Positions 42,896 through 45,138 of a stretch of DNA of 64,000 bases are shown here, piece after piece; the first letter of the stretch is position 1; every line of letters starts with the position of its first letter. Under the pieces are notes generated by a model that had not been told where the DNA came from, made no database searches, and saw only the letters and a list, made by a program, of their open reading frames with translations. The DNA comes from a virus (Duplodnaviria; Heunggongvirae; Uroviricota; Caudoviricetes). The position numbers and the translations under genes are program-made. The DNA is taken from IMG/VR virus record IMGVR_UViG_2675903313_000009, one strand, 5' to 3'.

Positions 42896-43969
42896 ATGGC
42901 AAAAGGAAAATCCGCACTGGCACTTGCTCTGAAAAAGAAAATCGGTAGCAACGACGAAATTCAGAAAGTAACTCATTGGATTGATACAGGCTTTCCACCG
43001 TTAAACAAAGCTATTTCTGGTCGTTACGATGGCGGCTTCCCATGTGGTCGTATCGTCGAAGTATTCGGTCCTCCAAGTGCAGGGAAAACGTTCCTTGCAA
43101 CAGCAGCGATGATCTCCGCTCAAAAACAAGATGGTCTGGCGGTATTCCTCGATCATGAAAACAGTTTTGACGTTGGCCTGGCTGTAGCCAATGGCCTGAA
43201 CGCAGATGAGGATGACGGTCAGTGGGTATACAAGCAGCCTGACACCTTCGAAGACTCTGTAGAGTTGATCGGCACAATACTTAAATTGGTACGTGATGAA
43301 GAGCTTATCCCTGAATCAGCACCTATCTGTATCGTGGCTGACTCACTTGCGTCTATGGTTCCGAACTCCAAAGCCGAGAAGTTCGAAAAGATGGCTGAAG
43401 GCACTGCCAAAGACAAAGATCAGCTAAACATGAACGACAATACGGCACTGGCTCGTGCGACAAGTGCGAACTTCCCTACTCTGGCTTTGTGGGCACGCAA
43501 ATACAACGCCTGCATCATCTTCTTGAATCAGGTTCGCACAAAAATCGGTGTAATGTTTGGCGACCCTACTACGTCGCCAGGTGGAGATTCACCGAAGTTC
43601 TACGCTTCTGTACGTATCCGTCTTGGTGCATCGGTGATGAAGGATGGTAAAGAGAAGATCGGCCAGGACGTAGGCGCAGAATGCATCAAAAACAAAGTTG
43701 CACCACCGTATGGCAAATGCACCTGGAAATTCTACTTCGATCCTACTCGTGGCCTCGACGTTATCGAATCGCTCGTCGAGTACATGCTGGAAGAAGGATA
43801 CCTGCCAAAGAACGCCAGCGGGCGAGTTGAAATTGGTGACAAGAAATACACCAAATCGCAGATCGTCGAGATGTATCGGGAGAAGCCACTGGCTGAAATC
43901 ATTGCGGCTTTGCAGGCAATCGACGACCGAAGAGCAAAAGACAACCCCACCGAGTCAGTAGAAGAGTAA
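42896..43969 (+). CDS. RecA/UvsX-family recombinase
   Basis: Walker A GPPSAGKTFLA in a RecA-like context; 357 aa. Confidence 0.75.
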   Translation: MAKGKSALALALKKKIGSNDEIQKVTHWIDTGFPPLNKAISGRYDGGFPCGRIVEVFGPPSAGKTFLATAAMISAQKQDGLAVFLDHENSFDVGLAVANGLNADEDDGQWVYKQPDTFEDSVELIGTILKLVRDEELIPESAPICIVADSLASMVPNSKAEKFEKMAEGTAKDKDQLNMNDNTALARATSANFPTLALWARKYNACIIFLNQVRTKIGVMFGDPTTSPGGDSPKFYASVRIRLGASVMKDGKEKIGQDVGAECIKNKVAPPYGKCTWKFYFDPTRGLDVIESLVEYMLEEGYLPKNASGRVEIGDKKYTKSQIVEMYREKPLAEIIAALQAIDDRRAKDNPTESVEE

Positions 43970-43975
43970 ACACAA

Positions 43976-43998
43976 GGCGTCCACAGGACGCCTTTTTT
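43976..43998 (+). terminator. Rho-independent terminator (GGCGTCC...GGACGCC family)
   Basis: GGCGTCC-ACA-GGACGCC followed by TTTTTT. Confidence 0.75.
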
Positions 43999-44061
43999 AT
44001 CTCTTGAAAATATATAAGTACTTACTTATTATTTTCGCATAACAACCACATAGGAAAACAC

Positions 44062-44262
44062 ATGATCAAAATCTATCTATTGGCAGTAGCCACAGGCGTT
44101 TCAGTGGCTCTCATCTACGGTTTACTGGTTCCGTCGCTGATTTCTACCAAGAGTGATTTAGCCGTCATGTTTGGAGTTATCGTTGGTTTTGGTGCTCCTG
44201 TAATCGGTCTTATTGCTGGTCGTAAGTTTATCAACTCATTAATCAAAGCAAAGGGGAAATAA
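44062..44262 (+). CDS. Small two-helix membrane protein (66 aa)
   Basis: Two hydrophobic segments; conserved GGAAAACACATG leader; immediately upstream of the SPFH gene. Confidence 0.5.
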   Translation: MIKIYLLAVATGVSVALIYGLLVPSLISTKSDLAVMFGVIVGFGAPVIGLIAGRKFINSLIKAKGK

Positions 44263-44265
44263 GTA

Positions 44266-45096
44266 ATGAAGAAAGGTTTACTTGCAGTTGCTCTGGCGGC
44301 TATTTGCACAATGGGTCTTACTGGCTGTGATCGCGTGGAGCCTGGATACGTTGGCATCAAAGTAAACAAATTAGGTGAAGACAAAGGGATCGGTGAAGTG
44401 GTTGGCGTTGGTCGCCAATGGACAGGTCTTAACACCGAACTTTACGTATTCCCGACCTTCAAACAAATGAAGACCTACGACGAGCCGTTCACATTCCAGA
44501 TGAGTGACGGTACTGCTATTGGTCACAAAATTGGCGTTGCGTATCTGGTTAATCGTGACAAGGTAACGACGGTGTTCCAGACCTATCGCAAAGGCGTAGA
44601 CGATATCACCGAATCAGATCTGCGTCAGAAAATTGCCGACTCTCTAAACCGTTTGGCCAGCCGTATGACCACTGACTCATTTATCGACGGTGGTAAGGCG
44701 CAATTGCTGGACAACGCACTGAAAGACATTCAGAAAGAGATGTCTCCGGTTGGTATTGAGGTACTGAGCCTGTCATGGGTTGGAAAGCCTGATTACCCAA
44801 AAACCGTCATTGAATCTATCAACGCCAAAGTAACGGCTAACCAGCGTACTCTGCAACGCCAGCAGGAAGTTGAACAGCGTAAAGCTGAGGCGAATATGCT
44901 ACGTGAACAGGCTAATGGTGAAGCTGATGCTATCCGTGCTCGTGCGCAAGCAGAAGCAGACGCCATTCGTCTGCGCGGTGAAGCTCTGCGTCAAAACCCG
45001 AACGTTATGGAGCTGGAAGCCATCAATAAATGGAATGGCCAGTTACCGCAGTACATGACTCAAGGGGCTAACACTCCTTTCATTACAGTGAAATAA
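44266..45096 (+). CDS. SPFH/band-7 domain lipoprotein
   Basis: Lipoprotein signal (AICTMGLTGC); central SPFH-like region; C-terminal Ala/Glu/Arg/Gln-rich coiled coil typical of the family. Confidence 0.7.
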   Translation: MKKGLLAVALAAICTMGLTGCDRVEPGYVGIKVNKLGEDKGIGEVVGVGRQWTGLNTELYVFPTFKQMKTYDEPFTFQMSDGTAIGHKIGVAYLVNRDKVTTVFQTYRKGVDDITESDLRQKIADSLNRLASRMTTDSFIDGGKAQLLDNALKDIQKEMSPVGIEVLSLSWVGKPDYPKTVIESINAKVTANQRTLQRQQEVEQRKAEANMLREQANGEADAIRARAQAEADAIRLRGEALRQNPNVMELEAINKWNGQLPQYMTQGANTPFITVK

Positions 45097-45113
45097 CTCC
45101 CCTTAAAAGTTCA

Positions 45114-45138
45114 GGCGTCCAGTTGGACGCCTTTTTTA
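45114..45138 (+). terminator. Rho-independent terminator (GGCGTCC...GGACGCC family)
   Basis: GGCGTCC-AGTT-GGACGCC followed by TTTTTT. Confidence 0.75.

Follow-up and report, generated by a model that had tools for sequence, protein, structure and literature searches.

A two-gene cassette in a 64,000-nucleotide stretch of the viral record IMGVR_UViG_2675903313_000009 (hereafter, the window) encodes a 276-amino-acid (aa) lipoprotein of the SPFH/Band-7 superfamily and, just upstream of it, a 66-aa membrane protein with two helices, and the two genes recur together, sometimes fused into one, across many kinds of phages. The window derives from an SSU5-like Escherichia coli phage-plasmid, and the cassette is conserved across the SSU5-like group. 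SPFH proteins are universal membrane organizers, and their roles in bacteria are still poorly understood. On balance, and with no great confidence, we favor the view that the pair forms a two-component, periplasm-facing SPFH scaffold in the inner membrane, made early in lytic development, that partitions or shields the membrane. Most of the weight of this view lies in its molecular description: direct support exists for the identity and fold of the proteins, the pairing and fusion of their genes, the selection acting on them, their distribution, and the structure of the cassette.

The original prediction, made from the window alone, had described the larger product as an SPFH lipoprotein with a long C-terminal coiled coil, and domain searches and structure prediction upheld this identity. 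Pfam Band_7 (PF01145) matched residues 23–209 with E=2.6e-30 (106.2 bits against a cutoff of 23.6 bits), covering profile positions 2–176 of 176, and PHROG 200 (“lipoprotein”) matched the protein at 3e-108. The N terminus begins with MKK and continues through a hydrophobic stretch to the lipobox LTGC, such that the signal sequence MKKGLLAVALAAICTMGLTG is followed by Cys21, a residue conserved in at least 90% of 48 aligned homologs; a C-terminal motif, KWNG.LP, is also conserved in the family. The AlphaFold model, built from 48 diverse homologs, had a mean confidence (predicted local distance difference test, pLDDT) of 86.7 and consisted of a signal helix, a beta-rich SPFH region at approximately residues 21–176, a 65-residue helix at 179–243, and a short helix at 245–255, with strands at 21–95 and 164–176 and helices at 97–162 and 179–255.

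In Foldseek comparisons with the Protein Data Bank (PDB), full-length matches with a probability of 1.00 were obtained for HflK/HflC (7vhq, 2e-14), human PHB1/2, erlin1/2, stomatin, and flotillin, while QmcA was a weaker fold match (rank 37, E 9e-8). HflK (7vhq_E, E 0.007) was the only sequence match in PDB, making HflK/HflC the best PDB match by sequence as well as by fold. The likeness extends over the SPFH1/2 domain, the long coiled-coil helix, and the C-terminal cap segment of the FtsH-HflKC structures (7vhq, 7wi3, and 9cz2), and both proteins are predicted to face the periplasm from the inner membrane. The equivalog cutoffs were not reached, however, by either the hflC model (TIGR01932, 30.2 vs. 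134.4 bits) or the hflK model (TIGR01933, 18.7 vs. 159.4 bits). Moreover, whereas HflK and HflC have an N-terminal transmembrane helix and pair with each other, the phage protein has a lipobox cysteine as its anchor and is the product of a single SPFH gene with a dedicated 66-aa hairpin as its neighbor. Given the full-length fold matches and the failing equivalog scores, the 276-aa protein truly belongs to the SPFH superfamily and is built like its cage-forming members, and we rejected its assignment as an HflK or HflC ortholog.

The 66-aa product (MIKIYLLAVATGVSVALIYGLLVPSLISTKSDLAVMFGVIVGFGAPVIGLIAGRKFINSLIKAKGK) has two hydrophobic helices separated by a short polar loop and ends in a basic tail, bearing out the earlier description of a two-helix membrane protein. 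It matched PHROG 1130 (“membrane protein”) at 9e-26, a group in the category “moron, auxiliary metabolic gene and host takeover.” Searches found no Pfam match at E≤0.1, no NCBIfam match, and no PDB match for this protein, and no consistent Pfam family emerged across 32 aligned partner proteins, which include the N termini of natural fusions and are 12–71% identical to the 66-aa protein of the window. Within this alignment, the residues P24, S28, and G38 are invariant and define the signature P..xS...G. As the Pfam and PDB searches were blank, we ruled out that the partner is an NfeD protein; with 66 aa, it is also too short to hold an OB fold.

The pairing of the two genes is conserved. In the window, the stop codon TAA of the small open reading frame (ORF) is separated from the ATG of the SPFH gene by three nucleotides (GTA), and the small ORF lies three bases upstream of the SPFH ORF in 45 of 45 SSU5-like viral loci. 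SPFH genes from 214 loci were grouped at approximately 85% identity into 38 clusters; related loci were searched using single distant representatives as queries, as the diverse alignment contains no conserved stretch of 7–10 columns. A separate upstream two-helix ORF was found in 28 of the 38 clusters and a fusion in one; relaxed criteria added five more partners, such that approximately 34 of 38 SPFH lineages keep the small partner. As a control, 102 further long ORFs from these loci were examined, and a two-helix neighbor was found at just one. The arrangement varies among lineages. P1-like phages carry a 70- to 78-aa version overlapping the SPFH start, the P2-like phage P88 has the partner gp11 ahead of the SPFH protein gp12, an N4-like Klebsiella phage has a 61-aa partner annotated as “2 TMDs,” and the partner is located one or two genes upstream in PVP-SE1 and in Pseudomonas phage TL; rV5-like and Bruynoghevirus phages are among those that have it. 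In phiP27 (NC_003356; L002 4756–4944), the partner gene is missing from the RefSeq annotation: it is a 62-aa two-helix ORF (MRLYFTIVILLAIIACIYGLLVPFLISMKDT...) that shares 4 nucleotides with the start of L05.

Some phages encode both proteins as a single polypeptide, and this indicates that the two work as one unit. When 1.84 billion representative proteins were searched, fusions of 330–390 aa accounted for 13 of the best 150 matches, and a 345-aa fusion ORF could be read directly on an 88-kb phage contig (L133 1812–2849). The fusions start with the hairpin, continue through a basic linker to a third hydrophobic segment that ends in a lipobox, and then enter the SPFH domain; the predicted model of a natural fusion accordingly had three N-terminal helices before the SPFH fold. 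The lipoboxes after the third segment differ among fusions (e.g., AISAC, LTAC, and FGGC in P0125, P0136, P0152, P0166, and others, as well as in L133). The fusion precursor may be cut at the internal lipobox by signal peptidase II, releasing the same products as the two-gene version.

The fusions also bear on topology. The basic tail of the 66-aa protein and the basic linkers between the second and third transmembrane segments of the fusions suggest that both ends of the hairpin are cytoplasmic, while the third helix ending in a lipobox would place the SPFH domain in the periplasm, on the same inner membrane as the hairpin and as in HflK/C. Following this arrangement, the 276-aa product would be exported and lipid anchored at Cys21 and adopt a ring- or cage-forming SPFH architecture, and the 66-aa product would be a helical hairpin (N-in, C-in) acting as the transmembrane subunit of a possibly one-to-one complex. 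The hairpin would replace the N-terminal transmembrane helix of HflK/C and hold the place, though not the fold, of the NfeD partners. We envisage that the two genes are translationally coupled and that the resulting scaffold fences off or stiffens patches of the inner membrane. Its likeliest purpose would be to shield the membrane of the infected cell, whether by keeping superinfecting DNA out or by softening attacks aimed at the membrane; a role in gating the proteolysis of inner-membrane proteins would be less likely.

Both genes show signs of sustained function. Across the SSU5-like elements, the ratio of nonsynonymous to synonymous substitution rates (dN/dS) is approximately 0.03 for the SPFH gene and 0.1–0.5 for the small gene, and from these low values we conclude that both are functional and under purifying selection. 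Between the window and phage Cyrano, the synonymous divergence (dS) is 0.63 in the small gene and 0.05 in the SPFH gene, a contrast indicating that the small gene has been swapped by recombination independently of its SPFH neighbor. Small-gene alleles with only 71–73% protein identity are seen in three relatives whose SPFH proteins are 98.6–100% identical (Cyrano [L001], L048, and L027), and from this mosaicism a recombination breakpoint can be placed where the two genes meet. That the small gene evolves fast was, in part, rejected as an explanation, with the divergence largely reflecting allele exchange and dN/dS remaining below 1.

The description in the original prediction held, but the pair is not peculiar to the element and turned out to be a widespread module that includes strictly virulent phages among its carriers. 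Using tblastn, SPFH homologs were detected in 413 of 50,697 phage records, many of them virulent. The temperate carriers comprise SSU5-like, P1-like, P2-like, lambdoid, and Stx phages and the strictly virulent ones N4-like, rV5-like, Bruynoghevirus, Erwinia phiEa104-like, phiCbK-like, and crAss-like phages and the Lak megaphages. Among complete E. coli genomes, 373 of 5,426 had a match, about half of these on plasmids of ∼108 kb and about half in chromosomal prophages at ∼75% identity. At every inspected locus, the pair is located among early, recombination, replication, or nucleotide-metabolism genes: in P1-like relatives, in the ban operon under C1 control, with trnT and trnI on either side; in P88, between cox and a replication gene; and in virulent phages, next to a dUTPase or an exonuclease gene. 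The presence of the pair in repressor-controlled early operons elsewhere, together with the operator-like palindrome described below, points to a role in the lytic cycle and not to one expressed in the lysogen.

In P1 itself, the corresponding slot of the ban operon is occupied by upl/plp and tciABC. We considered whether upl/plp represent the same pair and rejected this, as plp encodes 125 aa and lies on the opposite strand. In one P1-like viral contig, the SPFH pair and a tRNA are closely followed by a gene for a 191-aa protein with a Tad2-like (Thoeris anti-defense 2) domain (L053 5385–5960, E 3e-9), with a ban-like helicase gene coming after it. The ban-operon slot of P1-like phages thus appears to collect accessory or counter-defense genes.

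The window was assigned to the SSU5-like phage-plasmids on the basis of its identity to plasmids and phages and its gene order. The cassette region is 100% identical to the 120-kb plasmid of E. coli TW10722 and 93–99% identical to the phages CMS-2020a, PhiR41_1, and Cyrano, and Salmonella phage SSU5 has the same succession of exonuclease, recombinase, membrane protein, lipoprotein, and downstream genes. According to the Pfam and PHROG searches, the pair is flanked by a gene for a RecA-like recombinase, with an exonuclease gene nearby, and by a DUF7238 gene. All the elements that the original prediction had listed, namely the two ORFs and two terminators of one family bracketing them, were located (Table 1); the upstream terminator and a promoter-like site fall just 5' of the interval 44062–45138 given there. 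The RecA-like gene is uninterrupted in the window (42896–43969, 357 aa), whereas in Cyrano and many E. coli relatives it encodes 779 aa and is annotated as a LAGLIDADG homing endonuclease (L001 3731–6070; L217 1501–3840); this looks like an insertion polymorphism of an intein or a homing endonuclease in a phage recombinase.

Table 1. Features of the cassette and its flanks in the window
Feature	Position	Strand	Sequence or basis
Upstream intrinsic terminator at the end of the RecA-like gene; left flanking direct repeat	43974..44000	+	AAGGCGTCC-ACA-GGACGCCTT then TTTTTTATC
Sigma-70-type promoter-like site	44004..44032	+	TTGAAA-17 nt-TATTAT; 10/12 matches, best in 41–48 kb
10-bp perfect palindrome in the promoter spacer; candidate operator	44015..44024	.	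TAAGTACTTA; motif count
66-aa two-helix inner-membrane protein gene (PHROG 1130); putative partner subunit	44062..44262	+	ORF, PHROG 9e-26, family alignment, dN/dS
276-aa SPFH/Band-7 lipoprotein gene (PHROG 200)	44266..45096	+	Pfam, PHROG, AlphaFold, Foldseek, alignment, dN/dS
Downstream intrinsic terminator; right flanking direct repeat	45113..45138	+	AGGCGTCC-AGTT-GGACGCCT then TTTTTTATC

A terminator scan, pattern counts, and folding agreed on the two terminators. The scan placed hairpins followed by T6 at 43974–43994 and 45113–45132; the pattern GGCGTCC..GGACGCC occurs only twice in the 64 kb, against zero copies expected from shuffled sequences; and the folding energies are –14.7 kcal/mol (z –6.8) for the upstream and –15.1 kcal/mol (z –5.0) for the downstream hairpin. 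Terminators of the GGCGTCC type are confined to the SSU5-like lineage. SSU5, Cyrano, and two lineages farther away retain the promoter along with both terminators; the upstream terminator was found in SSU5, Cyrano, L028, and L032, and relatives also keep the downstream one. A 26-nucleotide promoter stretch that includes the spacer is invariant in the window, SSU5, L028, and L032 (four of five sequences), while the flanking genes are synonymously saturated, with dS above 1. With its own promoter-like site and terminator and its position between other genes, the pair has the layout of a moron cassette.

The palindrome in the promoter spacer is not unique. If one mismatch is allowed, the window contains six copies of it, where 1.55 are expected; they take the form TAAGTAYTTA (often GGTAAGTRCTTAC), and all six sites (262, 7178, 27359, 32253, 44015, and 54640) are on the plus strand, intergenic, and just upstream of plus-strand genes. 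Genes downstream of the sites include the SPFH pair and those for a minor tail protein, a tail fiber, NrdA, and a CobT-like protein that has a divergent regulator next to it, and in several of the six cases the motif falls between –35- and –10-like hexamers. The motif is, weakly, a candidate for a shared operator or promoter element of SSU5-like phage-plasmids. In the view that we favor, the pair would be transcribed from its own promoter under an operator-like palindrome, and the module would be made early in lytic development and not constitutively in the lysogen.

The terminator repeats also offer a route for the loss of the cassette. The two copies share AGGCGTCC and an identical 16-nucleotide 3' part, GGACGCCTTTTTTATC. 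At the empty site of plasmid pEco_M21170_105, the RecA stop codon precedes ACACAAGGCGTCCACAGGACGCCTTTTTTATC, to which GCAATTATC..., found after the downstream terminator in the window, is directly joined; a single hybrid terminator of this kind is as expected from recombination between the terminator repeats, which, by bracketing the pair, would permit its loss as a unit. The identical junction joins RecA to DUF7238 in 8 of 203 E. coli SSU5-like plasmids, while ∼195 keep the cassette. The gene has, therefore, not been lost from most relatives, an outcome that would have counted against the original prediction, but is retained in ∼96% of the close ones. Presence or absence with a clean junction among close relatives is a further property of moron cassettes, and deletion is the parsimonious direction of the change because SSU5 and all deeper relatives carry the pair. 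In a few SSU5-like plasmids, an IS3-family element truncates the cassette, with the match ending within the small gene (L218 6340–10499, a plasmid of E. coli LCP22S3_I2; also NZ_CP033097). Genes for a fimbrial usher and a fimbrial protein follow the IS3 truncation, indicating cargo acquired at the cassette site.

The resemblance to HflK/C has a direct alternative interpretation, that the lipoprotein and the hairpin assemble around or with host FtsH or HflK/C in the periplasm and that the altered access of FtsH to membrane or phage substrates, for example, stabilizes early phage proteins or, in temperate phages, biases the lysis–lysogeny decision. Consistent with this, HflK is the only sequence match in PDB, the best fold matches include FtsH complexes (7wi3 and 9cz2), the NCBIfam models of HflC and HflK are weakly matched, the predicted topology in the inner membrane facing the periplasm is that of HflK/C, and annotators have repeatedly speculated on an HflK/C-like role in lysogeny for the phage gene (PMC8540360 and PMC4936722). 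Yet the model scores are far under their cutoffs (30 vs. 134 bits for hflC and 19 vs. 159 bits for hflK), and prohibitin, erlin, and stomatin match about equally well, which places the similarity at the level of the superfamily. The module is also common in strictly virulent phages, which take no lysogeny decision, and since the partner is conserved, the complex is more readily seen as sufficient in itself than as parasitic on the host cage. We therefore consider such mimicry unlikely. The anatomy of the cassette, which has a promoter to itself, a terminator on each side, and a cleanly vacant site in relatives, is classic for a moron expressed constitutively in the lysogen, where it could provide superinfection exclusion or an envelope or virulence trait. 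PHROG places the small protein in its moron category, and deletion of Pasteurella multocida PM0222, likened to the phage gene by description, attenuates virulence in mice (PMC9872710). Against a lysogenic function, the pair belongs, in P1-like, P2-like, and lambdoid phages, to early lytic operons under repressor control and is frequent in virulent phages that never lysogenize; the spacer palindrome also recurs ahead of genes for tail proteins and nucleotide metabolism, which suggests that the lysogen represses the pair; a constitutive moron thus seems to us quite improbable.

A third possibility concerns the timing of lysis, with the 66-aa protein acting as a class II holin- or pinholin-like pore former that is restrained by the SPFH cage until lysis is due, or with the cage protecting the membrane until then. 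The size, two-helix topology, and charged C terminus of the protein indeed resemble class II holins, and SPFH cages such as HflK/C and stomatin are known to sequester membrane proteins. The genomic context does not agree, however: neither a lysis cassette nor an endolysin gene adjoins the pair at any examined locus, the neighbors being RecA, exonuclease, and DUF7238 genes in the window and recombination, replication, and nucleotide-metabolism genes elsewhere. P2-like, lambdoid, and P1-like phages have canonical holin–endolysin genes at other locations, PHROG 1130 carries no holin annotation, and one-to-one fusions with the SPFH protein are more in keeping with a subunit of the structure than with a client inside the cage. 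Of the explanations considered, lysis timing is one we regard as very improbable. A bolder version of the shielding hypothesis would see the module as a portable “membrane shield” of many tailed phages, an HflK/C-like cage of two subunits, with SPFH walls anchored by lipid and hairpins forming a palisade, which would arise within minutes after infection on the side of the inner membrane that faces the periplasm and seal patches against the entry of DNA from competing phages or against membrane-depolarizing abortive-infection effectors. This extension is speculative, and we hold it to be doubtful.

Several observations weigh against the early lytic scaffold that we favor. Asp at the +2 position after the lipid-modified cysteine is an enterobacterial signal for retention in the inner membrane, and it is present in the window (Asp22) and in 112 scored homologs; it is, however, confined to the enterobacterial members, with S, T, E, or G found in other lineages, so that the case for retention rests mainly on the fusions. 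Approximately 4 of the 38 lineages have no recognizable partner, and the operator reading of the palindrome is based on six short sites. The persistence of the eight natural deletants as plasmids shows the module to be dispensable, at least for plasmid maintenance, and a promoter and terminators of its own are equally expected of a lysogen-expressed moron. Neither protein matched any defense family in PADLOC-DB v2 at E≤0.1; we thus rejected a known defense system as an explanation, and the module lacks a tie to any such system. Finally, oligomerization, lipidation, localization, and timing are all inferred for this phage family, and the evidence does not separate shielding or exclusion from the gating of proteases.

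Among known systems, organizational parallels are offered by the SPFH-NfeD operons (QmcA-YbbJ, 8z5g; YqiJ-YqiK; and the archaeal PH1511-PH1510), in which the SPFH gene is translationally linked to a gene for a small membrane partner and natural fusions of the two exist; the conserved adjacency and occasional fusion of these operons are equally found in the phage pair. The phage partner, however, has no NfeD/OB-fold domain and no Pfam match, and while QmcA and YqiK face the cytoplasm, the phage protein is predicted to be exported. The prohibitin (PHB1/2) and erlin1/2 cages rival HflK/C as full-length fold matches (E 8e-14 to 5e-13) and have a C-terminal segment of the “LEA...P” type, but the sequence identity is 15–18%, and the membrane anchor, organism, and partners differ. 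T4 Imm and Sp, P22 SieA, and HK97 gp15 are small inner-membrane or periplasm-facing proteins, made early or by the prophage, that guard the envelope from incoming phages; they resemble the SPFH module only in the proposed mode of action and share no sequence or fold kinship with it.

The phage SPFH lipoproteins already in the databases belong to the same family, PHROG 200, and include phiP27 L05, P88 gp12, SSU5_062, PVP-SE1 gp117, and TL gp12, as well as the KpCHEMY26 “SPFH serine protease” and the phiCbK “band 7 lipoprotein”; their tblastn identities are 27–79%, and most have the small partner upstream. Their annotations are inconsistent (“serine protease,” “transposase fusion protein,” or “lipoprotein”) and do not link the two genes, and the first two of these product names are probably wrong. 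The original prediction had stated that the role of such a protein on a phage is not established, and this agrees with the literature: our full-text searches returned annotation remarks on the phage SPFH family, including its listing as a moron (PMC5834331), but no functional study, and a 2026 paper notes that the reason why phages carry the gene “remains unclear” (PMC13239085). In the literature searched, an experimental phenotype is described for just one phage-borne SPFH protein, PM0222, which is encoded by a P. multocida prophage, resembles HflK/C, is released in vesicles, and triggers TLR1/2 (PMC9872710). The comparison with PM0222 is by description and not by sequence, and its phenotype concerns host inflammation and virulence rather than phage biology.

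The finding is not categorically new, as it is not unique to the element and annotations of the gene family go back two decades, but the module is a distinct form of the SPFH-partner theme by virtue of its lipid anchor, a partner other than NfeD, its fusions, and its broad range of phages. Recognizing the two-gene, sometimes fused, unit corrects the “serine protease” and “transposase fusion” annotations. With one lipoprotein and one 66-aa partner under strong purifying selection, the module is a compact SPFH system that is experimentally small and tractable, and the empty-site plasmids provide natural knockouts. The module has passed among six or more unrelated types of phages, and ∼0.8% of sequenced phage genomes contain it. 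If the pair indeed protects the membrane or gates proteolysis, it would represent a new class of phage functions for host takeover or exclusion.

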